Sequence record: SRR31156797_4117
DNA: 37,920 nt
Strand: one strand, 5' to 3'
The notes beneath the pieces were generated by a model. The model was not told the origin of the DNA. It did no database searches and was given only the letters and a program-made list of their open reading frames with translations. Within the stretch, counting starts at the first letter, position 1; every line of letters begins with the position of its first letter. Shown here piece by piece: positions 11,949 through 34,886 of the stretch. Made by a program: the position numbers and the translations under genes.

Positions 11949-12033
11949 AAATCTATTGAACCGATTGTCGTGTTCGCTAATAAGAAGAATTGAAAAATCA
12001 AACAATCGTTTGAATCCAGAAAATCCAGAAATC

Positions 12034-12810: not shown

Positions 12811-12812
12811 CT

Positions 12813-13688
12813 ATGAGCAAAAAAGGTATTTTAATTTGCGGTCATGGAACTCGCAAGGAGAGAGGAGCCAAGGCTTTTCAAGAATTTGCAGAAAAATTTG
12901 CAGCAACAACTTCGGAATACGAAGTAGAATATGGGTTTTTGGAATTATCGGAACCTGATTTCGAAACTGGAGTGAAGCGTTTGGTTGAAAAAGGAGTTAA
13001 AGAGATTGTCGCTGTTCCTGTCTTTCTATTTACCGGAGTTCACATTCAAAGAGATATCCCCTATGCATTGAATAGTTTTCAGGAAAAATACAATGTAAAG
13101 ATTCAATTGGCGAATTACATTGGAACCTGTAATGAAATGGTTGAATATGGAGCTGAGTTGATCAACAACACTTTGAAAGATAAAGAGTGGAGGGCTGAAG
13201 ATACTGCCTTTCTTGCTTTGGGAATTGGAGCTTCGAAAGCTGAAGCAAATGGAGATTTAGCTAAAATGACTCGTTTGATTCAGGAGAAGCAAAATTATCC
13301 TTTTGCTGTAAATGCTTACACTAGCAGTATGACCTATCCGGCATTGCCACCAGTTTTAGATTGGTTGAAAGTATTGCCATTTAAGAATATTGTGATGCTT
13401 CCATTTGTATTTTTTCCTGGTGTCTACATGGACAGAGCTTATGAAACAATGGAAGTTTTTGCAAAAGAAAATCCAGATAAGAATATCGCTATCGCACCAC
13501 TTTTAGGTGATACAGATGGCTTATTTGATGTGTTAAAAACCAGATTGCAGGAAGTTTTAGATGGTAAGGTTGATTTAATTGAATCAACGGATTTAACTGG
13601 CGTAGAACCACATCATCACCATCATGGTCACGATCATGGTCATTGCCACGGGCACAGTCATAATCACGGACATCATCACCATCATTAA
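12813..13688 (+). CDS. cbiX: Sirohydrochlorin cobaltochelatase, two-domain CbiX with His-rich tail
   Basis: ICGHGTR, GFLELSEP, PVFLFTGVHIQRDIP; C-terminal poly-His. Confidence 0.88.
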   Translation: MSKKGILICGHGTRKERGAKAFQEFAEKFAATTSEYEVEYGFLELSEPDFETGVKRLVEKGVKEIVAVPVFLFTGVHIQRDIPYALNSFQEKYNVKIQLANYIGTCNEMVEYGAELINNTLKDKEWRAEDTAFLALGIGASKAEANGDLAKMTRLIQEKQNYPFAVNAYTSSMTYPALPPVLDWLKVLPFKNIVMLPFVFFPGVYMDRAYETMEVFAKENPDKNIAIAPLLGDTDGLFDVLKTRLQEVLDGKVDLIESTDLTGVEPHHHHHGHDHGHCHGHSHNHGHHHHH

Positions 13689-13703
13689 GATATAGAGAAG
13701 AAT

Positions 13704-14408
13704 ATGAGCGGAAAAGTATATGGAGTAGCTCTTGGTCCTGGAGATCCGGAATTGATTACCATTAAGGCACTGAAATGTTTGCAAAATATGGAGAAAATTT
13801 ATTTTCCAGCGACGCAAACACCTAAAGGAAATCAGGATAGTTTTTCTCTGGTGATTTTGAAACAATTGGAATTGGATGAAGCCAAATTTGTTCCTGTAAA
13901 TGTTCCAATGAGTAAGGACAGATCTCATGCTGAAAAGGTTTATGCTGGGCTTTATTTGCAAGTAGAGAAAGATGTGGCTGAGGGAAAACAGGTTGCAGTT
14001 GTAAGCGAGGGCGATATCTCATTTTTTAGCACCTTTTCGTATTTACTGGAAGATTTTCAGAAGAATGAAATTGATTTTGAGATGATTCCGGGCGTACCTG
14101 CATTTATCCTTGGAGGATCGGCTGGTCAATTGCCACTGGTTACTCAGAAAGATAAGCTTTTGGTTGCTCCTGATCTGGAAAACAAGGAGGAATTAGCATC
14201 GCTTTTGGATCAAAATCAAACGGTGGTTTTAATGAAAATTTCTAAGGTTCGTGATTGGATTAAAGAATTCATTGAAGAAAGCAAGTTGAACTTCTTTTAC
14301 GGGGAATATCTGGGAACAGAAAAACAGTTTACCTGTAAGGATATCGAAAGTTTACGGGAGAGAAGAATTCCATACTTTGCCATCATCATTTTTTACGGAA
14401 ATAAATAA
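13704..14408 (+). CDS. cbiL: Precorrin-2 C20-methyltransferase
   Basis: YGVALGPGDPELITIKA, EGDISFFSTF, IPGVPAF, TVVLMK. Confidence 0.9.
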   Translation: MSGKVYGVALGPGDPELITIKALKCLQNMEKIYFPATQTPKGNQDSFSLVILKQLELDEAKFVPVNVPMSKDRSHAEKVYAGLYLQVEKDVAEGKQVAVVSEGDISFFSTFSYLLEDFQKNEIDFEMIPGVPAFILGGSAGQLPLVTQKDKLLVAPDLENKEELASLLDQNQTVVLMKISKVRDWIKEFIEESKLNFFYGEYLGTEKQFTCKDIESLRERRIPYFAIIIFYGNK

Positions 14409-14414
14409 AATATC

Positions 14415-15818
14415 ATGCCAAATATATTAGGAAAAATTACAGTTGCAGGTTTAGGACCAGGAAGTCCTGAGATGTTTTTGAATCCTGCAATTGATGCAAT
14501 TAAAGAAGCCGATGTAGTTATCGGATACAAGTATTATTTTCAGTTTATCGAAAGTTTTTTAAAAGAAGGAACGGAATGCATGGATACTGGCATGAGACAG
14601 GAAGTGCAGCGTGCCGAAAAGGCTTTTGAACTGGCTGAACAAGGAAAAGATATTGTTGTGATTAGCTCTGGCGATGCGGGAATCTACGGTATGGCATCCT
14701 TGGTATTCGAAATGGCTGAGAAAACACAGTCGAAAGTAGAATTGAAAGTTGTACCGGGAATATCAGCTTTCCAGGCTGCGGCGGCTAAATTAGGTGCTCC
14801 TTTAAGTCATGACTTGGTGATTCTTTCACTATCAGATTTGTTGACAGATTATGCTTTGATTGAAAAAAGAATCAGGGCGGCATCTATGGGAGATTTTGTT
14901 ACGGCAATCTACAATCCTAAAAGCAAGAAAAGATATTGGCAACTGTATCGCCTTAGAGAATTGTTCTTGGAAGAGAGAGATGCAAATACTCCGGTAGCTA
15001 TTGTACGCCAGGTAGCTCGTGCTGAGGAGCAGATTACCTTAACCAACCTTCAGGATTTTGATCCGGAAATTGTAGACATGTTCTCCATTGTGATTGTTGG
15101 TAACTCTCAATCGTACATTTCAGGTGATAGATTTATAACGCCACGTGGATATTACAATAAAGAAGAGCAGAATGGCAGACCAGGTCCGCTTATTATGCAG
15201 GAAAGTTTCAGAACAATTGCTGCAGAGCTAAAAGGTATGGATTTACCTTTGGAAACCAAGTGGATGTTATTGCACTGCATTCACACATCAGCTGATTTTG
15301 AATTGGCGAAGATCTTAAAAGTACAGAACAATGCAGCTCCAAAGTTGAACGAATATTTACAAAAAGGTGGTGTAATCATTACTGATGTTACTATGGTTCA
15401 ATCAGGAATTCGTAAGAAAGCATGCGAAAGAATGGGCGTTCAGATCAAATGTTACTTGCACGATCCTAGAACAATGGAATTATCCGAAAAACATGGAATT
15501 ACTCGTACGCAAGCAGGAATTCGTTTAGCTGTAGAAGAACATCCTGATGCTTTGTATGTGTTTGGAAATGCACCAACTGCATTGATTGAATTAACGGATT
15601 TGATTCGTACAAAAGGGATTCAGCCTGCAGGTATCATTGCAGCTCCGGTAGGATTTGTAAACGTGAAAGAATCAAAGCACCGAGTGAAGAGCTTTACCGA
15701 ATTACCAGCGGTTATTATCGATGGACGTAAAGGAGGATCGACTCTGGCAGCAACCATTGTGAATGCCATTTTGAGTTTGGAAGATGCTTACGATCTAAAA
15801 CCAGGAAGAGATGTATAA
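14415..15818 (+). CDS. cbiH: Precorrin-3B C17-methyltransferase fused to precorrin-8X methylmutase (CbiH-CbiC)
   Basis: ISSGDAGIYGMA, LSLSDLLT, IYNPKS, ITPRGY; then FGNAPTAL, PVGFVNV, GRKGGS. Confidence 0.92.
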   Translation: MPNILGKITVAGLGPGSPEMFLNPAIDAIKEADVVIGYKYYFQFIESFLKEGTECMDTGMRQEVQRAEKAFELAEQGKDIVVISSGDAGIYGMASLVFEMAEKTQSKVELKVVPGISAFQAAAAKLGAPLSHDLVILSLSDLLTDYALIEKRIRAASMGDFVTAIYNPKSKKRYWQLYRLRELFLEERDANTPVAIVRQVARAEEQITLTNLQDFDPEIVDMFSIVIVGNSQSYISGDRFITPRGYYNKEEQNGRPGPLIMQESFRTIAAELKGMDLPLETKWMLLHCIHTSADFELAKILKVQNNAAPKLNEYLQKGGVIITDVTMVQSGIRKKACERMGVQIKCYLHDPRTMELSEKHGITRTQAGIRLAVEEHPDALYVFGNAPTALIELTDLIRTKGIQPAGIIAAPVGFVNVKESKHRVKSFTELPAVIIDGRKGGSTLAATIVNAILSLEDAYDLKPGRDV

Positions 15819-16998
15819 TTTCTACATCATTGGCATACCAGACAGAATGGAAGTGAGCCTTTCTCCTGAGGTGAAAGAGGTGCTGCAAACACAGCGCTAT
15901 TTCTCAGGAGGAAAGCGTCATCATGATTTGGTGATGAAATATCTTCCCGATAATGCGGAGTGGATTGATGTTGTGGTGCCATTGGAAGGAACCTTTCAAA
16001 AATACGAAAAGATAGAGGAGCCAATTGTGGTGATTGCATCTGGAGATCCATTGTTCTTTGGAATAGGGAACACCATCAAGCGTAGATTTCCTGAGGCAAA
16101 AATGAAGGTGTATTCTTACTTTAACAGCTTGCAGTTATTGGCTCATGAGTATCAGTTGCCTTATGGTGAAATGACAATCACTACTTTAACGGGTAGAGAT
16201 TGGGTGAACCTGGATCAGGAATTGATTCATGGTAAGAAAACCATTGGAGTGTTAACTGATAAAAAGAAAACTCCATCTACCATTGCAGCCAGAATGTTGG
16301 ATGCAGGATTGGACAATTACAGGATGATTGTAGGTTCAAAATTGGGTGGAGAAGAGCAATCTTGTTTTGAGATTTCCTTGAGAGATGCCGTCGGCAAAGA
16401 GTTCGCTCATCCTAATTGTTTGATTTTGATTCAGGAAAAACCGATTAAAAGAACATTAGGGATTCACGAGAAGGATTTTCACATACTGGATGGTCGCCCA
16501 AAGATGATTACTAAGCGCAGTATTCGTTTGAATTCCATTTCATTTTTGGAATTGGATGAGGCGAAACATTTGTGGGATGTAGGGTATTGTACTGGTTCAG
16601 TATCTATCGAAGCCAAACAATTTGCACCTTGGCTAAAGGTAACAGCCTTTGAGCGAAGAGAGGAGTCAAAAGAACTTTTAAAATTAAATCAACGAAAGTT
16701 TGCTGTACCCGGAATAGCGGGAATACACGATGACTTTTTCAATATAGATTTATCATCAATTAAGAGACCTGATCGCATTTTTATTGGTGGTCATGGAGGT
16801 AGATTGAATGAAATGATGCATCGCTTGCATGCAGTATTGGAAGATGATGGAATTATTGTTTTCAATACGGTAAGCGAAGCAACCAAGCAGGATTTCTTGA
16901 AAGCAGCTAATGAACTGCAAATGGAAATCTCTGATCAAATGAGTATTCAGCAGGACGATCACAACCCGATTGTGATTTTTCAGGCGAAAAAAAATTAA
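15811..16998 (+). CDS. cbiET: Bifunctional precorrin-6Y C5,15-methyltransferase (decarboxylating)
   Basis: ASGDPLFFGIG; MITKRSIR; LWDVGYCTGSVSIE; FIGGHGG; overlaps the cbiH stop. Confidence 0.9.
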   Translation: MYNFYIIGIPDRMEVSLSPEVKEVLQTQRYFSGGKRHHDLVMKYLPDNAEWIDVVVPLEGTFQKYEKIEEPIVVIASGDPLFFGIGNTIKRRFPEAKMKVYSYFNSLQLLAHEYQLPYGEMTITTLTGRDWVNLDQELIHGKKTIGVLTDKKKTPSTIAARMLDAGLDNYRMIVGSKLGGEEQSCFEISLRDAVGKEFAHPNCLILIQEKPIKRTLGIHEKDFHILDGRPKMITKRSIRLNSISFLELDEAKHLWDVGYCTGSVSIEAKQFAPWLKVTAFERREESKELLKLNQRKFAVPGIAGIHDDFFNIDLSSIKRPDRIFIGGHGGRLNEMMHRLHAVLEDDGIIVFNTVSEATKQDFLKAANELQMEISDQMSIQQDDHNPIVIFQAKKN

Positions 16999-17039
16999 CC
17001 ACGAAGGACAATAAAGAAATAGCTAAAAGCTAAAAAAAT

Positions 17040-18872
17040 ATGAGCAACACATTTATCATTATCAATAACCGATTTGCCATGGCAACGGCAGAGCGGATAG
17101 TAGCAAAAATGGAAGGCAGTTCAATTGTTTCTGTTGCAGGGTATGCTGGTAGCCTTAAAATAAACTCCATTCAATTATTTTTACAAAAGGAGTTTCAGAA
17201 TAGTGATTTGCTGATTTTTATTGGCGCAATGGGTATTTGTGTAAGAAGTATTGCTCCCTTTATAAAGGATAAGGCAAGCGATCCGGCAGTAATTAATCTG
17301 GATGTGAAAGGTAAATTCGTACAATCGGTTTTATCAGGTCATAAAGGTGGTGCGAATGAATACACCAAGCAAATTGCAGAGATTGTAAACGGAACTGCAA
17401 TTATTACAACAGCAAGCGATACTTTAAATTTGTGGTCTTTAGATATTATCGGAAGAGAATACGATTGGACCAATGAATATCAAAATGCAAAGGAGAATGA
17501 TTTTATTTCAGCTTTTGTCAATCAGAAAAAAACAGCTCTTTTATTGGATGTGAAAAATGAAGGAACTGAAGAATTGAAAGCTTCTTGCCCTGATTTTGTT
17601 GAGGTATTCTATCAATTTGAGGATATCAAACAAGAAGAGTTTAGATTGTTAATTGCTGTAAGTCCGGGGCTTTATAAAACTAAAATCCCAACATTGTTTT
17701 TCCGACCTAAGTGCATTGTGGTAGGAACAGGAGCACAAAAAGGAATCTTATTGAATGCTTTTGATGCTGAATTACAAAATCAATTTAAAGCCAATCACTT
17801 ATCATTTGCCTCTCTTAAAAGTATCAACAGTATTGATGTTAAGGTAGAGGAAGAAGCTTATAAGATATTTAGCGAAGCTATGAATCTATCATTCAATACT
17901 TACACAGCTGAAGAGTTGAATGAGAAGGAGGAAGAGGTTTCCTACTCAGAGGCAGCGCATCGTGAGCTGGGAGCTGTAAATGTATCTGAGGCATCGGCAT
18001 TGGTAGCCAGTGGATCGAATAAGTTATTACAAACCAAAAGTAAGCATGTTGATTCCAATGGGAAGCATTTTACCTTGGCATTGGCAATGGATGCAACACA
18101 GGAGAGAAAAGGTGAGATTTTTATTGTAGGAGCTGGACCTGGTGCGCCTGATTTGGTATCGGTTCGAGGACAGAAATTGTTGAAAAGAGCAGATCTGATT
18201 CTTTATGCTGGAAGTTTGGTGCCAAAGGAATTGACAGATTATGGAAAGGCTTCTTGTGTGATTCGCAATTCGGCTGACTTGACTTTGGAAGAGCAGTTTG
18301 ATGTGATGAAGAAGCACTACGATGAAGGTGGTTTGGTTGTACGTTTACATACTGGAGATCCTTGTATTTATGGAGCTATTCAGGAGCAAATGAATTTCTT
18401 CGATCAGCACGAAATGGAGTATGAAATTGTTCCGGGAATTTCATCATTTCAGGCTGCAGCGGCAAGATTGAAATCTCAATTTACTATTCCTGAAAAAGTA
18501 CAGTCGATCATCTTAACTCGAGGAGAGGGAAGAACCCCAATGCCTCCAAGAGAGCAATTGGCAGAATTTGCCAAATTCCAATCTACCATTTGTCTGTTCT
18601 TGAGCGTGACTTTGGTAGAGAAATTACAGAAAGATTTATTGGAAGGATATCCGGAAGATACTCCGGTTGCGATTTGTCACAAACTAACCTGGAAAGAGGA
18701 AAAAATTTGGAGAGGCGAATTGAAGGATTTGGTGAAGATTGTGAAAGAAAACAAGCTATCCTTAACTGTGATGATTGTAGTTGGTGAAGCAATCGGTAAC
18801 CGAAAAAACAGATCACTTTTATATCATCCTAAATTTACACACGGATGCAGAGTCGCTTCAGAAAAAGAATAA
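17040..18872 (+). CDS. cbiF: CbiG (cobalt-precorrin-5A hydrolase) fused to precorrin-4 C11-methyltransferase (CbiF/CobM)
   Basis: GAMGICVRSIAP..DPAV..LSGHKGGAN (CbiG); VGAGPGAPDL, YAGSLVP, RLHTGDPCIYGAIQEQ (CbiF). Confidence 0.92.
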   Translation: MSNTFIIINNRFAMATAERIVAKMEGSSIVSVAGYAGSLKINSIQLFLQKEFQNSDLLIFIGAMGICVRSIAPFIKDKASDPAVINLDVKGKFVQSVLSGHKGGANEYTKQIAEIVNGTAIITTASDTLNLWSLDIIGREYDWTNEYQNAKENDFISAFVNQKKTALLLDVKNEGTEELKASCPDFVEVFYQFEDIKQEEFRLLIAVSPGLYKTKIPTLFFRPKCIVVGTGAQKGILLNAFDAELQNQFKANHLSFASLKSINSIDVKVEEEAYKIFSEAMNLSFNTYTAEELNEKEEEVSYSEAAHRELGAVNVSEASALVASGSNKLLQTKSKHVDSNGKHFTLALAMDATQERKGEIFIVGAGPGAPDLVSVRGQKLLKRADLILYAGSLVPKELTDYGKASCVIRNSADLTLEEQFDVMKKHYDEGGLVVRLHTGDPCIYGAIQEQMNFFDQHEMEYEIVPGISSFQAAAARLKSQFTIPEKVQSIILTRGEGRTPMPPREQLAEFAKFQSTICLFLSVTLVEKLQKDLLEGYPEDTPVAICHKLTWKEEKIWRGELKDLVKIVKENKLSLTVMIVVGEAIGNRKNRSLLYHPKFTHGCRVASEKE

Positions 18873-18895
18873 TTACGAATTAGAAATTACGTATT

Positions 18896-18926
18896 GACCT
18901 GACAGGTTTTAAAAACCTGTCAGGTC
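18896..18926. repeat. Perfect 15-bp inverted repeat (REP-like palindrome)
   Basis: gacctgacaggtttt-a-aaaacctgtcaggtc inside the operon, between cbiF and cbiJ-D. Confidence 0.8.
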
Positions 18927-18940
18927 TGATGGATAAATAA

Positions 18941-20761
18941 ATGAAAATATTACTATTCGGAGGAACAACAGAAGGCAAAGCCACGTCGAATTGGTTGAGC
19001 GATTTGGAGATAGAACATTTCTATTCCACTAAGACCAATTCGGGCAATTACGAGAGCAAATTTGGTACTCGTATTTGCGGAGCTATGGAGGTTGCTGGAA
19101 TCTGTTCTTTTTGTAAGGGCAATCAAGTTGATTTGATTATTGATGCGGCACATCCTTTTGCAGATGTCTTGCACCAAAATATTGTAGCTGCTGCTAATCA
19201 ATTAGTATTGCCGGTTATTCGAATAGAAAGGGATGCGGTTCCCCGAATAGTGAGTGAATTCGTTCAGTATCATCAGAATTTGGATGGTATATTGAATGAG
19301 GTTAAGAAACAAAATCAATCAAAGGTCTTGTCTTTAATGGGAGTGAAAGCCTTGCCTGAAATTCATTCAAAAACCCATGGAATTGATATTTGGTACAGAA
19401 TATTGGATTTTCCATCCTCACAAAAAATAGCTGATGAAGCTGGAGTTGAGCGGGATCGATTAATAATTGCTCCTGCTTTTGAAGGAATGGAAACCCAGGA
19501 ACCATTATTAATTTCTGAAGGTATTCAAGCAATGATTACCAAAGAGAGTGGTTACTCCGGTTTGTTGGATCAGAAAATGGAATTGGCGATAAAACATCAA
19601 ATTCCTTTGTATGTGATTGCCAGACCAGACCTTCCAGAATACTATGAAACAGTTACCAATCGAGAAGGATTACAGAAATATCTGAAATCTGCCTTTGCCT
19701 TTGTAAGAAAGGAGATGGCTCATGGATTTACTTCAGGAACCTGTGCCACAATATCTGCGAAAGCAGCTATGAAATTATTATTGGGAGAGGAAAGGCAGGA
19801 AAAGGAACAAATTGTTTTGGCTGATGGTGGAAACTGCGAAATGGTTCTTCATCAGAATCAAAAAGGAGAAAATTTTGCACTTTGTTCGGTGGTGAAAAAT
19901 TCTGGTGACGATCCGGATATTACCGATGGAATGGAAATTGGTGTTCGTTTGTCCTGGAATGAAGAAAGTACGATTCGCTTTGTGAAAGGTGAGGGTGTTG
20001 GAACAGCAACTTTGAATGGTTTGGGAATTCCTTTGGGAGAACCTGCTGTAAATCCGGTTCCTCGGAAAATGATTTGTTTAGAGCTACAGCAATTGCTAGA
20101 AGATTATGAAATCAGTAAAGGAATTGATGTTTCAGTATTTGTGCCATTGGGAAGAAAACTGGGTGCAAAAACCTTTAATCCCAAGCTCGGCATTGTTGAT
20201 GGAATTTCCATTATCGGGACAACAGGCAGAATTAAACCTTATTCGCTGGAAGCCTATGTTCAGACTATTCAGAAGCAATTGGACTTGGCAGTTTTAAATG
20301 AGAGCAAGCATATTGTAATGAATTCGGGCGGACGAAGCGAACGATATTTAAAGCAAAGATTTACCGAGTTAAACAATCTTGCCTTTCTGCAATATGGAAA
20401 CTTTATTGGTGAAATGCTGAAAACCATTAATGGTTCGGGGGTAGTGAAAGTAAGCATGGGTATTATGACTGGGAAAGCCATTAAGTTGGCGGCAGGAAAT
20501 CTGGATACACATAGTAAGAAAGTGGTTTTGGACCATGAGTTTTTACAAAATCTGACTAGAGAATGTAATTATTCTGATGATGTAATTGATAAGGTAGGCA
20601 AGATAAAAATGGGAAGAGAATTGGAAGACATTTTCAATTTTTCGGGAGATGAGGCGTTCTTTAAAGCCATAAAAGAACAATGCATGGCAGTTTGCCAAAA
20701 TATAATTGAAGATTATGAATTTGAGCTTTTACTAATTAGTAATAAGGGAGAAATAGTATAA
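18941..20761 (+). CDS. cbiD: Precorrin-6A reductase (CbiJ) fused to cobalt-precorrin-5B C1-methyltransferase (CbiD)
   Basis: FGGTTEG, IDAAHPFA, TKESG (CbiJ); GFTSGTCA, KNSGDDPDIT, TFNPKLGIVDGISIIGTTG (CbiD). Confidence 0.92.
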   Translation: MKILLFGGTTEGKATSNWLSDLEIEHFYSTKTNSGNYESKFGTRICGAMEVAGICSFCKGNQVDLIIDAAHPFADVLHQNIVAAANQLVLPVIRIERDAVPRIVSEFVQYHQNLDGILNEVKKQNQSKVLSLMGVKALPEIHSKTHGIDIWYRILDFPSSQKIADEAGVERDRLIIAPAFEGMETQEPLLISEGIQAMITKESGYSGLLDQKMELAIKHQIPLYVIARPDLPEYYETVTNREGLQKYLKSAFAFVRKEMAHGFTSGTCATISAKAAMKLLLGEERQEKEQIVLADGGNCEMVLHQNQKGENFALCSVVKNSGDDPDITDGMEIGVRLSWNEESTIRFVKGEGVGTATLNGLGIPLGEPAVNPVPRKMICLELQQLLEDYEISKGIDVSVFVPLGRKLGAKTFNPKLGIVDGISIIGTTGRIKPYSLEAYVQTIQKQLDLAVLNESKHIVMNSGGRSERYLKQRFTELNNLAFLQYGNFIGEMLKTINGSGVVKVSMGIMTGKAIKLAAGNLDTHSKKVVLDHEFLQNLTRECNYSDDVIDKVGKIKMGRELEDIFNFSGDEAFFKAIKEQCMAVCQNIIEDYEFELLLISNKGEIV

Positions 20762-20764
20762 GAT

Positions 20765-21493
20765 ATGGGAAAAAAGTTATTTGTTTTGCTAGCCTTTTTA
20801 ATTCCTTTTCAGGGATTTAGCATGCACATCATGGAAGGCTATCTTCCGGCAGCCTGGTCGATTTTTTGGACTGTGGTTTACTTGCCATTTTTTGTGTGGG
20901 GTGTAAAAATTATTCAGGAAAAAGTGAAGAAACATCCGGAGTTGAAGATGTTGTTTGCCTTGGCAGCAGCCTTTGCATTTGTGATGTCGGCTTTAAAATT
21001 GCCTTCGGTAACCGGAAGTTCATCGCATCCTACAGGAGTGGGATTAGGAACCTTACTTTTTGGTCCTATTGCCATGAGTGTGCTAGGAGTGTTGGTTTTA
21101 ATTTTTCAGGTATTATTATTGGCTCATGGGGGAGTTACCACTTTGGGAGCAAATGCATTTTCCATGGCTTTGACTGGTCCATTGGTAACTTTCGGGATCT
21201 ATAAGTTGTGTGTAAAGTTTAAAATCAATCGCTCAGTATCTATTTTCCTAGCTGCCTGTTTGGGCGATTTGGCAACCTACACAGTAACCTCCTTACAATT
21301 GGCATTGGCTCACCCGGATGTACAAACTGGTGTGGCTGGCGCATTCGTGAAATTTGCCTCCATCTATAGCTTTACGCAGATTCCTGTAGCAATTATTGAA
21401 GGATTAATTACCGTTTTGGTAATGAACATTCTCATTAAAAATATACCAAGTTGGGAAGGGTTAAAATTCAAGTTTAAAACCTCAAAATCATAA
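20765..21493 (+). CDS. cbiM: ECF cobalt transporter S component
   Basis: Signal-like N-terminus then MHIMEGYLP; SSSHPTG; LAHGGVTTLGAN; TQIPVAIIEG. Confidence 0.93.
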   Translation: MGKKLFVLLAFLIPFQGFSMHIMEGYLPAAWSIFWTVVYLPFFVWGVKIIQEKVKKHPELKMLFALAAAFAFVMSALKLPSVTGSSSHPTGVGLGTLLFGPIAMSVLGVLVLIFQVLLLAHGGVTTLGANAFSMALTGPLVTFGIYKLCVKFKINRSVSIFLAACLGDLATYTVTSLQLALAHPDVQTGVAGAFVKFASIYSFTQIPVAIIEGLITVLVMNILIKNIPSWEGLKFKFKTSKS

Positions 21494-21497
21494 GAAT

Positions 21498-21788
21498 ATG
21501 CTACAAAAGATCGTAAAGAATCAGAATTTTTGGATTATCATCGCCATAGTAGCTATTGTTGTTGGTGTATTTTCATACGTTGACAATTCAGAATTTGGTG
21601 GCGCCGACGGACAAGCAGAAGAGTACATTGTGGAAGCTAATCCTGCATATGAACCTTGGTTTTCGAATATCTGGGAACCACCCGGATCGGAAATTGAAAG
21701 TTTACTATTTGCATTGCAAGCTGCCATCGGAGCAGGTATTTTGTTTTATGTGATAGGATATTATAAAGGAAAGAAATCTGCGGCATAA
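21498..21788 (+). CDS. cbiN: ECF cobalt transporter component
   Basis: FGGADGQAE, YEPWF, EPPGSEIESLLFALQAAIGAG. Confidence 0.93.
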   Translation: MLQKIVKNQNFWIIIAIVAIVVGVFSYVDNSEFGGADGQAEEYIVEANPAYEPWFSNIWEPPGSEIESLLFALQAAIGAGILFYVIGYYKGKKSAA

Positions 21789-21837
21789 TCGTAAAGATGT
21801 ACAGCTGTGCGTTTGTATAGAAATAATTAAATCTATT

Positions 21838-22632
21838 TTGTTTTTTCAGGAACGATACATATTAAAAAAATCCCTTTTCGGATTAGAAGGCATGGAAAAG
21901 TTTATTCTTTTCATGATATTGCTTAATGCTGCCTTGTTGTCTGATCAAATGATACTTCACCTTATTTTATTATTGGGGATTGTTTTGTGTTTTTTGATTT
22001 ATGGAATGAGTTTGCAAAAAATGTTGCGTCTTTTGGTTTTACCATTTGGATTTATTCTGTTGGGAAGTATTTCTATTGCTTTATCCTTGCATGCCAATCC
22101 TGAAACTTCAATATTTTGTTGGGAAGGAACTAGCATTTGCATTGGAGTAGAGGAGGAAGGATTGCAAAAAGCAATGGCATTGTTTTGTAAAGCAATGGCA
22201 GCAGTAATGGCGTTAAATTATCTAATTCTTTCCTGTCCTTTATCGGAGATTAATGATATAGGAAGAAGGCTAAGAATTCCATTGATTTTAAGAGAGCTTT
22301 TTGTGCTTACCTATCGATACATAACTCTGCTTTTTGGATTTACAACACAGGTACATATAGCTCAACGCAATCGCTTGGGCTATGCGAGCAAACGAAAAAG
22401 TATTTCATCCATGAGCATGCTGTTTTCTTCGGTGTTTATTAAGAGTTTGCAATATTCACAGCGAAACTTCGAAGCTATGCAATCCAGAGGCTATACCGGC
22501 GAATTCTATTTTAATGAGCACAGTAAAGCAATGCGATTGCTACCCTTAATCTTGTTGGGATTGCTAGCTATCTTTTTGTTGTCAATTCACTATTTGTTAT
22601 CCAATTCATCATTCATCATTTATAATTTTTAA
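21838..22632 (+). CDS. cbiQ: ECF cobalt transporter T component
   Basis: LTYRYI, AQRNRLGY, AMQSRGY; TTG start uncertain. Confidence 0.88.
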   Translation: MFFQERYILKKSLFGLEGMEKFILFMILLNAALLSDQMILHLILLLGIVLCFLIYGMSLQKMLRLLVLPFGFILLGSISIALSLHANPETSIFCWEGTSICIGVEEEGLQKAMALFCKAMAAVMALNYLILSCPLSEINDIGRRLRIPLILRELFVLTYRYITLLFGFTTQVHIAQRNRLGYASKRKSISSMSMLFSSVFIKSLQYSQRNFEAMQSRGYTGEFYFNEHSKAMRLLPLILLGLLAIFLLSIHYLLSNSSFIIYNF

Positions 22633-22639
22633 ATACCAT

Positions 22640-23425
22640 ATGTTGCGTCTTCAAAATATAAACTATACTTATCCTGAGGGAACGAAAGGATTACAAGATG
22701 TTTCTCTCGAGATAAAAAGGGGCAGTAAGATGGCTTTTTTAGGGGAGAATGGTGCAGGTAAATCCTCTCTGTTTTTGGTTTTGAATGGAATTCATAAACC
22801 GCAGAAAGGAAAATATTACATCGAAGAGAATAGCTTCAAATTCACTTCAAACGAAAGAAAGCAGATGGCGGCTAAGGTAGGATATGTTTTTCAGGATCCG
22901 GATGTGCAGTTATTTGCAGGAACTGTTTATGAAGATGTTGCTTTTGGTCCATCGAATTTGGGATTGAAAGGAGAGGAATTAAAGTTGCGTGTAAGCAAAT
23001 ACATCGAATTATTAGGAATTGGAGAGTTAAGAGAAAAAGCCCCACATCAGTTAAGTTACGGGCAGAAGAAGCAGGTTGCTGTAGCAGGCGTGTTGGCGAT
23101 GGAACCGGAAATTGTATTGTTTGATGAGCCATTTGCCTGGTTGGATAATCGTCACAAGCAAATCATGACAGACATTATCGAGGATTTGAACAAGCAGGGG
23201 AAAACAGTTTTAATCTCTACTCACAATCCTGATTTTGCCTACGAATGGGCAGATGATGTGGTATTAATGAAACAGGGAAGAGTGATCGCCTCAGATTCTC
23301 CTGAAAAAGTGATGACAAATAAAGTGATGATGCAGGAAATCGGCATGGAATTGCCTTTGGTCGTTCGTTTGGCGAGGAAATTGGGTATGGAAAATCATCC
23401 CCGTTCAGTACATGAATTTTTGTAA
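22640..23425 (+). CDS. cbiO: ECF transporter ATP-binding component
   Basis: GENGAGKS, VFQDPDVQLF, LSYGQKKQV, LFDEP. Confidence 0.92.
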   Translation: MLRLQNINYTYPEGTKGLQDVSLEIKRGSKMAFLGENGAGKSSLFLVLNGIHKPQKGKYYIEENSFKFTSNERKQMAAKVGYVFQDPDVQLFAGTVYEDVAFGPSNLGLKGEELKLRVSKYIELLGIGELREKAPHQLSYGQKKQVAVAGVLAMEPEIVLFDEPFAWLDNRHKQIMTDIIEDLNKQGKTVLISTHNPDFAYEWADDVVLMKQGRVIASDSPEKVMTNKVMMQEIGMELPLVVRLARKLGMENHPRSVHEFL

Positions 23426-28743: not shown

Positions 28744-28773
28744 AAAAAAAGAGGTTGCATAGTTGGCAACCCC
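28744..28773 (-). terminator. Rho-independent terminator closing the precursor array
   Basis: Minus strand GGGGTTGC-CAACTAT-GCAACCTC-TTTTTTT, 25 nt after the last precursor stop. Confidence 0.85.
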
Positions 28774-28798: not shown

Positions 28799-28954
28799 TT
28801 AATCATAGATTCTCATGCAAACACCGCCATCGCAATAATACCCGCCTGGGCAATCCTCGTGCCAGTCGCAAAAAGGATGGGCACCACCTTTAATATTTTG
28901 TTGTTCTGTTTTACTCAATTCTTTTGCACCAACTAGTTTTTCTAAATTTTTCAT
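28799..28954 (-). CDS. Double-glycine precursor peptide P9 (51 aa): MKNLEKLVGAKELSKTEQQNIKGG|AHPFCDWHEDCPGGYYCDGGVCMRIYD
   Basis: 24-aa GG leader shared with 8 neighbours; start reassigned from 28984. Confidence 0.9.
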   Translation of the reverse strand: MKNLEKLVGAKELSKTEQQNIKGGAHPFCDWHEDCPGGYYCDGGVCMRIYD

Positions 28955-29009: not shown

Positions 29010-29216
29010 TTATGGTTCTAGTTCACCATTACCTCCGCCTCCACCAGAACCGCCAGAGTTCGGATCATCAGGTACACAGAATATACCTTCGCAATGTTGT
29101 CCTTCGGGACATTCAGGATCGGATCCGCAGAATGACCCTGAAAAGCCACCTTTAACATTTAATTGTTCTTTTTTGCTAAGTTGTTTAGCACTAGTAAGGT
29201 TTTCTAAATTTTTCAT
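29010..29216 (-). CDS. Double-glycine precursor peptide P8 (68 aa): core FSGSFCGSDPECPEGQHCEGIFCVPDDPNSGGSGGGGGNGELEP
   Basis: Conserved leader, 4 Cys, Gly-rich tail. Confidence 0.9.
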   Translation of the reverse strand: MKNLENLTSAKQLSKKEQLNVKGGFSGSFCGSDPECPEGQHCEGIFCVPDDPNSGGSGGGGGNGELEP

Positions 29217-29270: not shown

Positions 29271-29441
29271 TTAAACTGGAATCGGAAGGCAAATACCGAG
29301 GTCTATTACGCAGCCTTGCCCCTCAGGACAGCTTTGATCATCAATGCATTTTGGATCGTTTGGCCATTGACCACCTTTAATAACTTGTTGTTCTTTCTTA
29401 CTTAGTTTTTTTGCTTCAGTTAATTTTTCTAAATTTTTCAT
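29271..29441 (-). CDS. Double-glycine precursor peptide P7 (56 aa): core QWPNDPKCIDDQSCPEGQGCVIDLGICLPIPV
   Basis: Conserved leader; start reassigned from 29477. Confidence 0.9.
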   Translation of the reverse strand: MKNLEKLTEAKKLSKKEQQVIKGGQWPNDPKCIDDQSCPEGQGCVIDLGICLPIPV

Positions 29442-29534: not shown

Positions 29535-29711
29535 TTACATTCTGCTACACCAGTCTCTGCAATTGGGAGGAGCAACTCTTATGCAACGCTCATAAGTCAT
29601 ATATTGTAACCCCATATCGGCACAAGACATTGGTACTTCTCCACCTGCAACATTTACCTGTTCTTTTTTACTGAGGATTTTGATTCCAGTTAAATTTTCT
29701 AAATTTTTCAT
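29535..29711 (-). CDS. Double-glycine precursor peptide P6 (58 aa, not in ORF track): MKNLENLTGIKILSKKEQVNVAGG|EVPMSCADMGLQYMTYERCIRVAPPNCRDWCSRM
   Basis: Translated by hand; conserved leader, 4 Cys. Confidence 0.9.
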   Translation of the reverse strand: MKNLENLTGIKILSKKEQVNVAGGEVPMSCADMGLQYMTYERCIRVAPPNCRDWCSRM

Positions 29712-29824: not shown

Positions 29825-30010
29825 TTAATCCATAGGAGTAAATGGATCGAAGCCGTTTGGGCATTTTTTACCAGCCTCCCATGGTGTAATAATTCCATCT
29901 ATTAGGCAAAATACCCCTACAGGTTTGAGTTCTCCAATACCACCTGTAATTTCTTTTTGTTCTTGTTTATTAAGAGTCTTTGCTTCAGTTAGGTTTTCTA
30001 AATTTTTCAT
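29825..30010 (-). CDS. Double-glycine precursor peptide P5 (61 aa): core IGELKPVGVFCLIDGIITPWEAGKKCPNGFDPFTPMD
   Basis: Conserved leader, 2 Cys. Confidence 0.88.
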   Translation of the reverse strand: MKNLENLTEAKTLNKQEQKEITGGIGELKPVGVFCLIDGIITPWEAGKKCPNGFDPFTPMD

Positions 30011-30120: not shown

Positions 30121-30267
30121 TTAGCCCTGGAAGTAACAATTAAATCCACTACAAGAAGCATCAGGATGACATTCAACGTAACATGGAGGAGTTGCGCCAC
30201 CTTTTATAGTTTGTTGCTGTTTTTTGTCAAGAGTTTTTACTCCGGTTAATTTTTCTAGGTTTTTCAT
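30121..30267 (-). CDS. Double-glycine precursor peptide P4 (48 aa, not in ORF track): MKNLEKLTGVKTLDKKQQQTIKGG|ATPPCYVECHPDASCSGFNCYFQG
   Basis: Translated by hand; conserved leader, 4 Cys. Confidence 0.9.
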   Translation of the reverse strand: MKNLEKLTGVKTLDKKQQQTIKGGATPPCYVECHPDASCSGFNCYFQG

Positions 30268-30318
30268 GGGAAATGATTTATATTTTATGAATATTTATGA
30301 AAAAATGTATTGTTTATC

Positions 30319-30474
30319 TTACTCAAGAAGGTATCTTTCACATGCACCGTTAATACAGGTCCACCCTGTTGGACATGTACCATCTGCATTACATTGTCTT
30401 TTCCCACCTTTAACATTTTGTTGTTCTTTTTTACCAAGAGTTTTGGCTCCCTTTAAGTTTTCTAAATTTTTCAT
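30319..30474 (-). CDS. Double-glycine precursor peptide P3 (51 aa, not in ORF track): MKNLENLKGAKTLGKKEQQNVKGG|KRQCNADGTCPTGWTCINGACERYLLE
   Basis: Translated by hand; conserved leader, 4 Cys. Confidence 0.9.
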   Translation of the reverse strand: MKNLENLKGAKTLGKKEQQNVKGGKRQCNADGTCPTGWTCINGACERYLLE

Positions 30475-30502
30475 TTGTATGAATTTAAAATGTAGTTTTT
30501 TA

Positions 30503-30535: not shown

Positions 30536-30554
30536 ATTATTTAATTGGGTGTAT

Positions 30555-30707
30555 TTACTCTATACTGTATTGACAAACACCATTTATACATTGCATTAAA
30601 CCAGGGCAAGAGTAATCAGGTCTACAATCTATTTGACCACCTTTTATCGCTTGCTGTTCTTGCTTACTAAGAGTTTTAGCTTTAGTGAATTCTTTTAAAT
30701 TGTTCAT
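30555..30707 (-). CDS. Double-glycine precursor peptide P2 (50 aa, not in ORF track): MNNLKEFTKAKTLSKQEQQAIKGG|QIDCRPDYSCPGLMQCINGVCQYSIE
   Basis: Translated by hand; conserved leader, 4 Cys. Confidence 0.9.
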   Translation of the reverse strand: MNNLKEFTKAKTLSKQEQQAIKGGQIDCRPDYSCPGLMQCINGVCQYSIE

Positions 30708-30724
30708 AGGGTTTTATTGTTAAT

Positions 30725-30970
30725 TTATAAATTAGGATCAATGTGTATTGGTCCTTCTGGACTTCCACCGTTATTTCCACCACCTCCACTGCCAGAGTTA
30801 GGGTTGTCAGGAACACAAGTTCCATTTTCACAGTGCTGTCCGGTTGGACAATAGCCAACTCCATCTTCCATTTGACATGCTGATGGGATGTATGGCAAAC
30901 CACCTTTTACATTTTGTTGTTCTTTTTTCGTTAAAGTTTTAGTTCCTGTTAGATTTTTTAAATTTTTCAT
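30725..30970 (-). CDS. Double-glycine precursor peptide P1 (81 aa): core LPYIPSACQMEDGVGYCPTGQHCENGTCVPDNPNSGSGGGGNNGGSPEGPIHIDPNL
   Basis: Conserved leader, 4 Cys, Gly-rich tail. Confidence 0.9.
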   Translation of the reverse strand: MKNLKNLTGTKTLTKKEQQNVKGGLPYIPSACQMEDGVGYCPTGQHCENGTCVPDNPNSGSGGGGNNGGSPEGPIHIDPNL

Positions 30971-31015
30971 TTTCTAAATGTTAAATTTGATTCCCGAAAT
31001 ATTCAGGAATAGAGA

Positions 31016-32614
31016 TTATTGAATTAATGCAGTATTCTGCATCTGAATTTGTTCTTCAGTTAAATTTTCGATAAAATATTGCAAGTCTTCAAAATCATAT
31101 TCTTTTGGATATGATCTTCCATTAATCAATACTTCGGGAGTAAATAGAATTTGATTTTGCGTGCACCATTCTTTTTCTTTCTCGAGTACATCATAGATGT
31201 TTATGTTATTGCACTTACCGTATGTCTCTATCCATTTTAAAGGTGAGAGAATTTCATATGCGTCATTCATTGCTTGCATGCAGGCAGTTTGACCTTTTGT
31301 TTTAAATATTTCGATAAGTTTTGCTGCTATTTGGGTATCCGAATTTTCTTTCTTGTTCGATAAGTTAAATCGAACAGTAATTTTAATATCAGATGATTTT
31401 TCTAGTGCTTGATGTATTATTTTGTGTGAATTTTTACAAAAGCTACATAATGGATTTGTGATGATAACAATCTCAAGGTTGGCATTAGAATTTCCAAAGG
31501 TAATTTCATTAATAGTTGAAATTTGAGTATCTAACTTCGTTGATCTATAATGTAATGCGTTAAAAATTTCAAAATTCCTTTTGAATTTGTTGTGTTGAAT
31601 TTTTAGATCAAATATCTGCTTGTTTTCTTGTAGCTTTGGTGAAATAAAGAACCAAAAACTTGTTGAAACAAATAAAGTAAATAGTAGTATTGGTATTGTA
31701 TTTATTGATATTTGAAGAAATTCTGCTGAACTTATATTGAGGAAAGAAATTGTAGCTTGAAGAATAAGAATACCAACAGTAGACAGGCAAAGTAAGCACC
31801 ATTTTTTAACAATTAATGCTTGGTAAATAATGGAATAGATTGTAAACGGTAAGGCTAGAATACTTATTTGATGAAGCAATTTAAAATCAATTGATTTAAA
31901 AGTTATGGCAAATGAAAGAGCTGTAATGAATAAGAAATAAATCATACCTAAATCACTTAATCTTAGAATGCCAAGGATTTTTCCACCTTTGGAATTCATT
32001 ACATCAGTACAGCTCAGTTTTTTATTATTACCCGAGCATATTTTGTTCAGAAGGGAAGAGTTTTCTCCTAGTTCGTGTTGGAATATTAAAGCACAAACAT
32101 AAATTGCTATAGCACTGAGAAGAAAGTGTATGCTCTCATATAATTTCTGATTTAAGATGATAAATGTTGCTACAATGAGTAAGGGACTTAATGTGACAAA
32201 TAATTTCTTGAAATTATAAGGTTGGGATTGTTTGTCATATTCGTCAATATCAATACCCAAAACAACACCCGTCCAAACGATTATAAATTCAGAATAGGTA
32301 AGGAATTTATATTTCCTGCCGTTTTCACTCATTTTCAAACCATCTTTGTGTTTGCATATTAACACAAAGTTATCTCCTGTCTGATCATTGATATGAGCGA
32401 TAAAGTGGTCGGGTAAAAAATTTATATTTTCTTCCGATTTTGGAATCTCTAAGGCCAAATTTGGAATATTGAAATGGTCTAGAACTCCAGTTAATGAATT
32501 TAAGCTTGGATAGGTAGGGTGACCGAATAGTTGAAGGCGAAGTTCGTCATTATCAACTTTAATTTTATTCTTAACTAATAATCCTTCAAGAATTAGGAAT
32601 AAATTTTCATTCAT
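31016..32614 (-). CDS. Vitamin K epoxide reductase (VKOR) family protein with N-terminal degenerate peptidase-C39-like domain and C-terminal thioredoxin/DsbA-like domain
   Basis: HPTYPSLNSL..LPDHFIAHI..NFVLI..WTGVVL (C39-like); loop Cys pair CSGNNKKLSC plus VMNS and WCLLC (VKOR); NPLCSFC and FTPEVLING (thioredoxin fold). Confidence 0.85.
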   Translation of the reverse strand: MNENLFLILEGLLVKNKIKVDNDELRLQLFGHPTYPSLNSLTGVLDHFNIPNLALEIPKSEENINFLPDHFIAHINDQTGDNFVLICKHKDGLKMSENGRKYKFLTYSEFIIVWTGVVLGIDIDEYDKQSQPYNFKKLFVTLSPLLIVATFIILNQKLYESIHFLLSAIAIYVCALIFQHELGENSSLLNKICSGNNKKLSCTDVMNSKGGKILGILRLSDLGMIYFLFITALSFAITFKSIDFKLLHQISILALPFTIYSIIYQALIVKKWCLLCLSTVGILILQATISFLNISSAEFLQISINTIPILLFTLFVSTSFWFFISPKLQENKQIFDLKIQHNKFKRNFEIFNALHYRSTKLDTQISTINEITFGNSNANLEIVIITNPLCSFCKNSHKIIHQALEKSSDIKITVRFNLSNKKENSDTQIAAKLIEIFKTKGQTACMQAMNDAYEILSPLKWIETYGKCNNINIYDVLEKEKEWCTQNQILFTPEVLINGRSYPKEYDFEDLQYFIENLTEEQIQMQNTALIQ

Positions 32615-33308: not shown

Positions 33309-34886
33309 TTAAACTAAAATACTGGATTTTCTATTTTCAAGCTTTAAATGGTCTTCATCCGAATGTGAGGTGGGAATAGTAAAATAAAATAAACTACCTC
33401 TTTGTAATAGAGATTGCAAATGAATTTCTCCACCAAGTTTTTCAACAAGACCTTTAACGATGGATAAACCTAATCCTGTTCCTCCATAAATTCGATCTGC
33501 ATTCTGTTCAACTTGTGAAAAACGGTTGAATATTGATTTGTGATAGGCTTCAGGAATGCCAATGCCAGTATCTTTTATGTAAAAAGTAAGTAATCCGTTT
33601 GCTTCAACTTTAAGGTCTACTTTGATATAGCCTTTATCCGTAAATTTAAAGGCATTATTAACAAGATTTATAATTACTTGTTTTAATTTTCCTTTATCTG
33701 TAAAGAGGATAATATTATTAAATTTTTCTGTGTTTGGTAATTTCAATTCTAGATGAGCTTTATCATATCTTTTTTGAATTTCGCAAAAAGTAGGAGTTAA
33801 TTCTGTTATGAGATCATTTAAAAGAAATTGCTCTGTGCTTAGTGCGATGTTTTCAGATTCAATTTTAGATATATCTAATAAGTCACTGATAATGTAAAGC
33901 AAATCTTTCCCTCTTTGACTTATTATATTAGTATATTCACTTAGTTTGTTTTTGTTGTTAAATTCTTGTGGTAAGAGTGAAGAAAAACCTAGAATTGCGT
34001 TCATTGGTGTTCGTATTTCATGACTCATATTTTGAAGAAATATAGTTTTTAAACGATCACTTTCAATTGCTTTTTGGTTAGCGACAATTAGTTTATTGTT
34101 TTGTTCTTTTAAGATAGCTTCACTTTGGATAACTTTTCTCTGAGATTGATTTCTTTGCTTCACAACTAGTAACATTCTTCGATAAGACAAGCTTCCAATT
34201 ATGAGAAGTAAAAGGTAAATGATAGAGTGCGTAAGAATTAAATTGTTGATTTTTACTTTTAAAATTTCCTTATATTTTTTCATTGGAATGGCAACACTTA
34301 TTCCTCCCCGGATATCTCCAATTTTGTATCCCTGATTAGCATGACATTTAAGACATGAATTCTCTATTACTAATGGCTTCATGTATCTCAAATGATTTTC
34401 ATTATTAATATTTTCAATACTTGAATATTCTTGTTTTCCGTCCTGAAACATTTTAAGAGCATTGTTTTCCCATTCATCTGCTTTGTTTTTAGGGTTTAAT
34501 GGATGTAAACTGGTAATATGCCCTTTTTCGCCATACTGAACGGCACCTATCTGAAATACAAGTCGGGTCATGTATGCAGGATTAATTAAGGTAAGTTTTT
34601 GTCCAGTATTGGTAGTTATATTTCTTTCCTTAACAAACTCCAGGTATGGGTTGGGAACTATAGAATCGGTTATTGGTACATAAACACCTCCGTGCATGGA
34701 TGCCCACTTGCGAAAGGTGAGATCTTTATTGTAATTACCTATAGCTTCAACTTTAGCTAATTCATAGGTGGTTTTTTTTTCATTTGATATATTCCATAAC
34801 AAAGATGATACAATCAGAATGGTAAATCCAACAATCATTGATATGAAAAATTGCTTGAAATATTTTATTTCCTTACTCATAGTCAA
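33309..34886 (-). CDS. Sensor histidine kinase with periplasmic DUF3365/Tll0287-like c-type heme domain
   Basis: HGGVYVP, LINPAYMTR, CLKCH heme motif, GDIRGGISV; MSHEIRTPMN, NAFKFT, GTGLGL. Confidence 0.9.
   Translation of the reverse strand: MTMSKEIKYFKQFFISMIVGFTILIVSSLLWNISNEKKTTYELAKVEAIGNYNKDLTFRKWASMHGGVYVPITDSIVPNPYLEFVKERNITTNTGQKLTLINPAYMTRLVFQIGAVQYGEKGHITSLHPLNPKNKADEWENNALKMFQDGKQEYSSIENINNENHLRYMKPLVIENSCLKCHANQGYKIGDIRGGISVAIPMKKYKEILKVKINNLILTHSIIYLLLLIIGSLSYRRMLLVVKQRNQSQRKVIQSEAILKEQNNKLIVANQKAIESDRLKTIFLQNMSHEIRTPMNAILGFSSLLPQEFNNKNKLSEYTNIISQRGKDLLYIISDLLDISKIESENIALSTEQFLLNDLITELTPTFCEIQKRYDKAHLELKLPNTEKFNNIILFTDKGKLKQVIINLVNNAFKFTDKGYIKVDLKVEANGLLTFYIKDTGIGIPEAYHKSIFNRFSQVEQNADRIYGGTGLGLSIVKGLVEKLGGEIHLQSLLQRGSLFYFTIPTSHSDEDHLKLENRKSSILV

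Follow-up and report, generated by a model that had tools for sequence, protein, structure and literature searches.

By the textbook account, bacteria form disulfides in the periplasm. The gene described here lies on a 37,920-nucleotide stretch of DNA (sequence record SRR31156797_4117; the whole stretch is referred to below as the window) and encodes a single protein in which known kinds of system are combined, namely, VKOR-thioredoxin (VKOR-Trx) oxidases, inactive C39-like domains, and the dedicated oxidoreductases of bacteriocin loci. This protein, hereafter called the fusion, consists of a C39-like N-terminal domain, a VKOR core, and a DsbA-like C-terminal domain. Its gene is followed by genes for cysteine-rich peptides with double-glycine (GG) leaders, and the arrangement suggests an oxidase that would act on these peptides in the cytoplasm, before their export.

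Synechococcus-type VKOR-Trx proteins (PDB 3KP9, 4NV2, and 4NV6) and the VKOR-Trx proteins of Bacteroidota (403 to 455 amino acids) have the four-helix VKOR core, a loop cysteine pair, and a CxxC motif in common with the fusion. They also share the fifth transmembrane (TM) helix of the fusion (TM5) and a C-terminal thioredoxin fold with a CxxC motif, and the quinone relay is likely the same. In contrast to these proteins, the fusion has two additional N-terminal parts, the C39-like domain and a helix termed TM0. Its C-terminal domain is of the DsbA type and bears a helical insert, and its bias in lysine and arginine residues (K/R) is reversed at every loop. A 2015 VKOR phylogeny noted additional N-terminal domains on VKORs of Bacteroidetes and said no more of them; our literature search returned no paper naming VKOR together with peptidase C39 and nothing on the fusion.

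The VKORi of Aeropyrum pernix was reportedly described by Hibender et al. in 2017. A 2026 paper on viral VKORs names the crenarchaeal VKORi as the only VKOR reported to face inward; in E. coli, this cytoplasm-facing enzyme sustains the formation of disulfides in the cytoplasm (PMC13486548). With its four catalytic cysteines on the cytoplasmic side, VKORi resembles the fusion as we read it and is the only reported natural precedent. Compared by its description, it differs in being an archaeal, stand-alone protein of a hyperthermophile that has no leader-binding or DsbA-like domain.

The C39-like domain (CLD) of HlyB is without the catalytic cysteine and binds its substrate, which it does not cleave. 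This domain and the peptidase domains of PCAT1, ComA, and LahT150 share a papain-like C39 fold with the N-terminal domain of the fusion (Z scores of 12.9 to 15). Like the HlyB CLD, the fusion domain lacks the catalytic cysteine and is proposed to bind substrate rather than cut it. It differs in that its fusion partner is an oxidase and not an ABC transporter, in that the catalytic histidine and aspartate are gone as well, and in that it starts at the first helix of the fold, with the oxyanion glutamine region absent.

In Bacteroides and Prevotella, bacteroidetocin (class IIf) loci encode four-cysteine GG-leader peptides and a peptidase-containing ABC transporter (PCAT), along with a dedicated thiol oxidoreductase. 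According to the available part of the account of these loci, their hosts are without general disulfide machinery, deletion of the oxidoreductase attenuates toxin activity, and the oxidoreductase and a separate five-TM protein are both needed for full activity (Coyne et al. 2019, PMC6671954). The window has the same combination of GG-leader Cys-containing peptides and a dedicated thiol oxidoreductase, here nine precursors and the fusion gene. It differs from the bacteroidetocin loci, as far as that part describes them, in that their oxidoreductase and five-TM protein (function unassigned) are separate genes and their leaders have 15 amino acids; a PCAT gene adjacent to the precursors together with a five-TM protein gene was not found in the window. 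The same part of that account discusses no VKOR, C39-like domain, or topology.

Architecture of the fusion protein

Upstream of the fusion gene (Table 1), the reading frame of the ATG runs into stop codons within 24 codons, and the protein therefore has no hidden N-terminal extension. Pfam assigned residues 164 to 290 to VKOR (PF07884; 55.1 bits against a cutoff of 27.5; E value of 1.1e-14) and residues 367 to 516 to Thioredoxin_4 (PF13462; 32 bits against a cutoff of 23.2), with no ABC domain in the protein. A match to Peptidase_C39 (PF03412) at residues 13 to 121 reached 16.9 bits, below the cutoff of 22, and began at profile position 22, past the place of the catalytic cysteine. Among five relatives, four passed this cutoff (23.2 to 29.4 bits) and the closest relative, at 21.1 bits, failed. 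No NCBIfam model matched the fusion protein.

An AlphaFold2 (AF2) model, built from 116 homologues, had a mean predicted local distance difference test (pLDDT) value of 90.4 and a predicted template modeling score of 0.74. It shows an alpha/beta N-terminal domain (residues 1 to 121), six long helices, and a C-terminal alpha/beta domain (residues 371 to 531). In structure comparisons, residues 155 to 297 matched a VKOR-like protein (6wv8; Z, 12.8), and the C-terminal domain matched ScsC (5idr; Z, 17.1; root mean square deviation [rmsd], 2.7 over 159 residues) and BdbD (3eu3; Z, 15.5). With the VKOR region as query, phmmer found no match among PDB sequences; the family profile does match the Synechococcus VKOR 4nv6 (E value of 7.1e-6).

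Conservation, the occupancy of the catalytic cysteine column, and K/R numbers were all evaluated over 116 family members. C193, C202, C273, C390, C393, and T492 are invariant, and C276, K270, K271, W272, and P493 are at least 90% conserved. The fusion thus has the features that characterize a VKOR (Pfam score, four-helix core, loop cysteine pair, and a CxxC that opens the fourth helix), and its C-terminal part has the score, CxxC, cis-proline loop, and fold of a DsbA-like (Thioredoxin_4) protein.

Table 1. Features of the fusion locus and its surroundings, with positions in the window
Feature	Position	Strand	Remarks
Fusion gene, whole	31016..32614	-	532 amino acids; C39-like domain, TM0, VKOR core, TM5, DsbA-like domain
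C39-like domain, residues 1-121	32252..32614	-	Without Cys/His/Asp triad; family-specific HPxYPSL...H47F48 motif
Extra helix TM0, residues 135-155	32150..32212	-	Hydropathy core 140-152 conserved in the family; AF2 helix 135-154
VKOR four-helix core, residues 158-293	31736..32143	-	Pfam VKOR; 6wv8 fold match; Synechococcus 4nv6 profile match
Loop cysteine pair C193...C202 (CSGNNKKLSC)	32009..32038	-	Both invariant in 116 sequences
VKOR active-site CLLC, C273-C276	31787..31798	-	Follows nearly invariant K270 K271 W272; conservation in 116 sequences
TM5, residues 304-325	31640..31705	-	Runs on as K/R-rich helix to residue 345; AF2 helix 304-345
DsbA-like thioredoxin-fold domain, residues 357-522	31049..31546	-	cis-Pro motif T492-P493; Pfam Thioredoxin_4; fold
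CSFC, C390/C393	31436..31447	-	Within DsbA-like domain
Precursor 1	30725..30970	-	24-residue GG leader; 4 core Cys; Gly/Asn/Ser-rich tail
Precursor 2	30555..30707	-	GG leader; 4 Cys
Precursor 3	30319..30474	-	GG leader; 4 Cys; partner in complex prediction
Precursor 4	30121..30267	-	GG leader; 4 Cys
Precursor 5	29825..30010	-	GG leader; 2 Cys
Precursor 6	29535..29711	-	GG leader; 4 Cys
Precursor 7	29271..29441	-	GG leader; 4 Cys
Precursor 8	29010..29216	-	GG leader; 4 Cys; Gly-rich tail
Precursor 9	28799..28954	-	GG leader; 4 Cys
Terminator-like hairpin and T run after precursor 9	28751..28773	-	Consensus match only
Histidine kinase (Tll0287-like sensor, HisKA, HATPase)	33309..34886	-	Directly upstream of fusion gene
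Cobalamin biosynthesis/cobalt uptake cluster	11917..23425	+	Unrelated to fusion locus

An N-terminal domain without the C39 triad

Comparison of the AF2 model with known structures revealed a papain-like C39 fold in the N-terminal domain. From residue 1 onward, the domain matched leader-bound LahT150 (6mpz; Z, 14.4; rmsd, 2.7 over 121 residues), and it also matched ComA (3k8u; Z, 14.0), PCAT1 (Z, 13 to 15), and an HlyB chain (8dck_A; Z, 12.9). None of the three catalytic residues (Cys, His, and Asp) is present. The first cysteine anywhere in the protein is C87, and the stretch aligned to residues 1 to 35 contains no cysteine in 110 of the 116 members, with scattered, nonconserved cysteines in the other six. 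An hhalign comparison with the active C39 domains of six PCATs encoded in related genomes (probability, 91%; E value of 1e-6) aligned N82 with the invariant histidine of their NHYVV motif and E97 with the invariant aspartate of SDPA; only six family members have a histidine in the catalytic column. A preliminary description of the window had pointed to the missing nucleophile near the N terminus and to NFVLI in the place of the H(F/Y)VV of active domains. Both observations extend to the family, and by these substitutions in its sequence the C39-like domain is catalytically dead. It carries a motif of its own, with H32, P33, Y35, P36, S37, L38, H47, and F48 each at least 90% conserved.

Precursor genes and possible leader binding

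Nine small genes, spanning positions 28799 to 30970, lie directly downstream of the fusion gene on the same strand. All nine encode a 24-residue leader ending in GG (consensus, MKNLENLTGAKTLSKKEQQNVKGG), and the core peptides contain four cysteines in eight cases and two in one. This arrangement is conserved. In 69 of 80 related loci, a hidden Markov model (HMM) of the nine leaders detected same-strand downstream open reading frames (ORFs); in six others, GG-leader Cys-rich ORFs with a variant leader were found by eye, and the remaining five loci stop less than 350 nucleotides past the fusion gene. GG-leader precursors are present downstream in all 75 loci with enough downstream DNA. At least two core cysteines are encoded by 209 of the 210 leader-like ORFs in these loci, and the number is even in 171. 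A full PCAT with an intact C39 domain ("DCGPTC," "NHYVV," and "DPA") is encoded downstream in 45 of the 80 loci, and both loci scanned for gene order had the fusion gene followed by precursors, PCAT, and an HlyD-family protein.

The preliminary description had also proposed that the dead C39 domain serves as a reader of leaders, and modeling of the domain with a leader was among its suggested checks. In a complex prediction, residues 1 to 135 and precursor 3 scored 0.58, a value classed as weak support (best of three controls, 0.01), with contact agreement of at least 88% among runs and a partner pLDDT of at least 65. Of 78 solved complexes, 51 reached the mark for such predictions, as did 2 of 108 mismatched pairs; with scores of 0.60 or less, it was reached by only 5 of the 78 and by each of the 4 passing mismatches (of 180). 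Because like complexes have been solved (6v9z, PCAT1-CtA; 6mpz, LahT150-leader), the pass may reflect likeness only. That the dead domain binds leaders, as the C39 fold (with its match to 6mpz), the universal synteny with GG-leader genes, and this complex prediction suggest, is less well supported than the cytoplasmic orientation (see below).

It is improbable, in our estimate, that the fusion faces the cytoplasm but has a C39-like domain that docks the PCAT or is a structural remnant, with the DsbA-like domain alone selecting substrates. Such a role would agree with the low docking score and its possible origin in likeness to solved complexes, with the lack of conservation of the catalytic groove residues, and with the domain's own conserved motif. 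Yet the fold, from residue 1, is that of leader-binding double-glycine proteases, the domain is full length throughout the family, TM0 serves only to set it on the redox side (see below), and the gene stands directly upstream of GG-leader genes in every informative locus.

Several of the cores share the pattern C-x(5-6)-CP-x-G-x2-C-x2-G-x-C, with a subthreshold match to the TIGR04201 Cys-rich repeat family. Other NCBIfam matches of the precursors (TIGR04149, leader_Chryseo, CCPGW_fam, and Myxo_Cys_RPT) were likewise all subthreshold. In precursors 1 and 8, the four-Cys core is followed by Gly/Asn/Ser-rich tails ("PDNPNSGSGGGGNNGG..." and "PDDPNSGGSGGGGGNGELEP", respectively). Seven core cysteines occur in 31 of the 210 ORFs of related loci, for example, in the recurring "CNGNCAGRPNG..CY..GHC.CPG.C" of L020, L033, L066, and other Flavobacteriaceae loci. 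The hairpin after precursor 9 is a probable operon end, judging by its match to the terminator consensus. A scan for sigma-70 promoters was uninformative (20 sites versus 25.6 expected).

Orientation in the membrane

Family-mean hydropathy has cores at residues 140 to 152, 164 to 173, 226 to 237, 248 to 257, 273 to 288, and 307 to 319, and the AF2 model has helices at residues 135 to 154, 158 to 181, 219 to 239, 245 to 269, 274 to 293, and 304 to 345. Two of these six segments precede C193/C202, two lie between the loop and WCLLC, and two precede CSFC, just as had been counted by eye in the preliminary description, where an odd number before the loop was taken to mean periplasmic redox sites; both analyses placed two helices there. 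With six helices, parity brings every soluble part and every redox cysteine to one face of the membrane: the N-terminal domain, the loop pair, the CxxC, and the DsbA-like domain. TM0 is missing from canonical Bacteroidota VKOR-Trx proteins, which begin at TM1, and its only visible effect is to place the N-terminal domain on the redox side.

The redox side is rich in K/R. Counted over whole loops and flanks, the family means are 13.7 on the redox side and 0.7 on the other side, and within 6 residues of the helix ends they are 5.95 in 27.9 residues and 0.71 in 21.1 residues, respectively. All 116 members have more K/R on the redox side, and the 15 residues following TM5 contain 3.66 on average. 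For controls, we used VKOR genes from a 301-genome sample of Bacteroidota, of which 51 genomes had a VKOR; 30 loci were taken, three of which (L123, L126, and L133) did not enter the control alignment owing to their atypical architecture. Canonical VKOR-Trx proteins without C39 domain or TM0 (13 of 403 to 455 amino acids), together with one 542-amino-acid form, have 0 to 2 K/R on the redox side versus 6 to 13 on the other, and six short Bacteroidota VKORs have 0 to 1 versus 3 to 6, whereas the 11 C39 fusions in the same alignment have 3 to 8 versus 0 to 3.

The reversal can be followed along the chain. Before the CxxC, canonical proteins have an acidic or neutral stretch (e.g., IGEFC) and the fusions have KKWC; the TM2-3 and TM4-5 loops are Arg-rich in the former and contain about 0.3 K/R each in the latter; and after TM5, a Pro/Ala/Thr-rich acidic linker stands against a K/R-rich helix. 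The solved Synechococcus VKOR, with 3 K/R in the TM2-3 loop and 2 in the TM4-5 loop, follows the canonical pattern. Neither five TM helices starting from TM1 with no N-terminal domain nor the outward charge bias, which together mark an outward VKOR-Trx, was found in the fusion. Under the positive-inside rule, the reversed bias indicates that the fusion family would be inverted relative to its outward Bacteroidota paralogues, in line with the inversion relative to typical bacterial VKORs that had been suggested for the window.

No signal peptide was found either. K/R are absent before K15, and the N terminus is itself the first helix of the C39 fold (residues 4 to 15 in the AF2 model). Among 207 full-length relatives, an HPxYPSL-like motif was located in 182, and 175 of these begin right at the fold; the other seven are longer at the N terminus by 7 to 40 residues, with no added segment that is hydrophobic. 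The missing signal peptide, noted before for the single protein, points to a cytoplasmic N terminus and agrees with the K/R bias. On these two grounds, both read from sequence, we think it probable that the redox sites of the fusion face the cytoplasm.

Inverse K/R bias was also seen in four stand-alone VKORs of 136 to 161 amino acids (L125, L128, L129, and L130 in Bacteroidota genomes G019, G206, G029, and G286, respectively), which have 2 to 3 K/R on the redox side, 0 to 1 on the other, and an R or K right before the CxxC. These short VKORs may be inward-facing too. The neighbors of the L129 gene are genes for an ABC-2 transporter and a deacetylase-family protein. Considered as candidates for the closest kin of the fusion core, the short forms are by HMM score not especially near to it, their scores being mixed with those of canonical forms; no kinship is proposed.

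Proposed mechanism and the canonical alternative

We propose that the fusion is a cytoplasm-facing, leader-docking oxidase that installs disulfides before export, and we consider this complete model, which has a computational basis, to be somewhat favored by the evidence. The chain would start in the cytoplasm as the dead C39-like domain, exit via TM0, and return via TM1 of the VKOR core. The cytoplasmic face would then hold the C193/C202 pair, the CxxC of the quinone site (C273/C276), and, beyond TM4 and TM5, the DsbA-like domain with C390/C393. The dead C39 domain would grip the 24-residue GG leader of the nine downstream precursors while the DsbA-like CxxC oxidizes their core cysteines. Electrons would flow from the DsbA-like CxxC by way of the loop pair and then the VKOR CxxC to membrane quinone, a path that we infer from analogy with the established mechanism of Synechococcus VKOR-Trx and from the invariance of the three cysteine pairs. 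The oxidized precursor, still bearing its leader, would be passed to a PCAT, which would cleave after GG and export the product; the PCAT gene is adjacent to the locus, along with that of an HlyD partner, in relatives, and in the clade of the window it would lie at another site in the genome.

Several points weigh against this model. The cytoplasm is reducing, and the close structural neighbors of the C-terminal domain (ScsC, BdbD, and DsbA) are all extracytoplasmic oxidoreductases. The complex prediction, which was run without alignments, stayed at weak support. The protein encoded in the window is among the weaker cases of charge bias, with 5 versus 3 K/R near the helices. The number of core cysteines is odd, mostly seven, in 38 of the 210 precursors, so that simple complete pairing fails for some of them; one thiol would be left unpaired or be free for an intermolecular bond. 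The window contains no PCAT gene, and in the loci of Marinifilaceae relatives none is adjacent either; in the genome of the closest relative, three full-length matches of the PCAT type were located on contigs other than that of the fusion. Finally, the bacterial, plant, and mammalian VKORs examined are all outward-facing according to the available part of the viral VKOR paper (PMC13486548).

The last point and the extracytoplasmic neighbors of the DsbA-like domain would fit a canonical orientation, in which the VKOR core faces outward, TM0 takes the C39-like domain to the periplasm, and the fusion acts after the peptides have crossed the inner membrane. An outward oxidase would also fill a gap in the hosts, since neither DsbB nor a VKOR other than the fusion was found in the five genomes of relatives carrying the fusion that were searched for host context, and eukaryotic and viral VKORs are known to violate the positive-inside rule. 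We nevertheless regard this orientation as unlikely. It needs the export of a folded N-terminal domain of 120 amino acids that has no signal peptide in the relatives checked, and the loops that would be cytoplasmic total 0.71 K/R, compared with 3 to 13 in outward paralogues of the phylum. PCATs remove leaders at export, so a leader-binding domain would find no ligand outside, and PCAT-HlyD (type I secretion) systems are thought to bypass the periplasm altogether, which likewise counts against a periplasmic site of action.

Family spread and genomic context

A search with the N-terminal domain retrieved 675 representatives at an E value of 0.001 or less. Among the best 150 of these, 101 have at least 500 amino acids and none has more than 559, and the N-terminal subfamily appears, within these best 150, to be confined to the fusion architecture. 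Three kinds of candidate for other architectures were rejected. A 389-amino-acid protein (P0110), considered as a form without the N-terminal domain, begins inside TM0 and is hence a fragment; short matches of 135 to 188 amino acids resemble contig-end or frameshift fragments; and a possible split or stand-alone DsbA-like relative, a single 217-amino-acid protein on a 2.1-kb contig, gave no support for a split form.

Species-representative genomes contain 395 confirmed fusion stretches, and some genomes have two or three copies. Each of the five genomes searched for host context has 2 to 5 full-length PCAT-type C39 matches. As the only VKOR or DsbB homologue found in these five genomes, the fusion could be taken for a general housekeeping disulfide oxidase that merely adjoins bacteriocin-like genes. 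We judge this to be very improbable, given that a VKOR of any kind occurs in just 51 of the 301 sampled genomes of the phylum, that some genomes have more than one copy (in one of them, both adjoin a PCAT), and that the synteny with precursors is universal. The divergence of the fusion also speaks against a housekeeping role: between two Marinifilum genomes, the window and that of an uncultured Marinifilum (L001), the fusion proteins are 79% identical, compared with 94 to 99% for the neighboring histidine kinase, DEAD helicase, ABM, and SAM-HAT proteins, a difference typical of a bacteriocin locus.

The precursor arrays of these two genomes (window positions 28799 to 32614; L001 positions 11,600 to 14,400 and 10,001 to 11,593) contain 9 genes and 11 leader-like ORFs, respectively, in a different order. 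By these comparisons, the locus resembles an island of rapid evolution whose place in the chromosome is conserved. A complete Tenacibaculum genome (G004) carries two fusions (C1:1795258-1799783 and C1:2999189-3003309), each followed by its own PCAT, and the two PCATs have an identical top C39 score; the pair looks like a duplicated peptide-export locus. Histidine-kinase genes precede the fusion gene both in the window and in two distant relatives (L058, 7858 to 9696; L009, 8099 to 8821), and these kinases may regulate the peptide operon. The cobalamin and cobalt uptake cluster elsewhere in the window comprises genes for CbiX, CbiC, CbiG, CbiD/CbiJ, several TP_methylase proteins, CbiM, CbiQ, and an ABC ATPase.

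Implications for cysteine-rich peptide biosynthesis

If its orientation is confirmed, the fusion would be the first inward-facing bacterial VKOR. In our assessment, the chances are slightly better than even that it represents natural, leader-guided cytoplasmic disulfide formation in a mesophile, ahead of PCAT export, and that a large family of Bacteroidota from marine and sediment settings uses it to make knotted peptides with 2 to 4 disulfides. Such a system would revise the accepted site and timing of folding for disulfide-rich secreted peptides, and disulfide formation would join the leader-guided peptide modifications. It would explain how hosts with neither DsbB nor another VKOR make disulfide-rich peptides, and it would provide a compact, genetically encoded module for making such peptides inside cells. 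The large fusion family is tied to hundreds of uncharacterized Cys-rich peptides.

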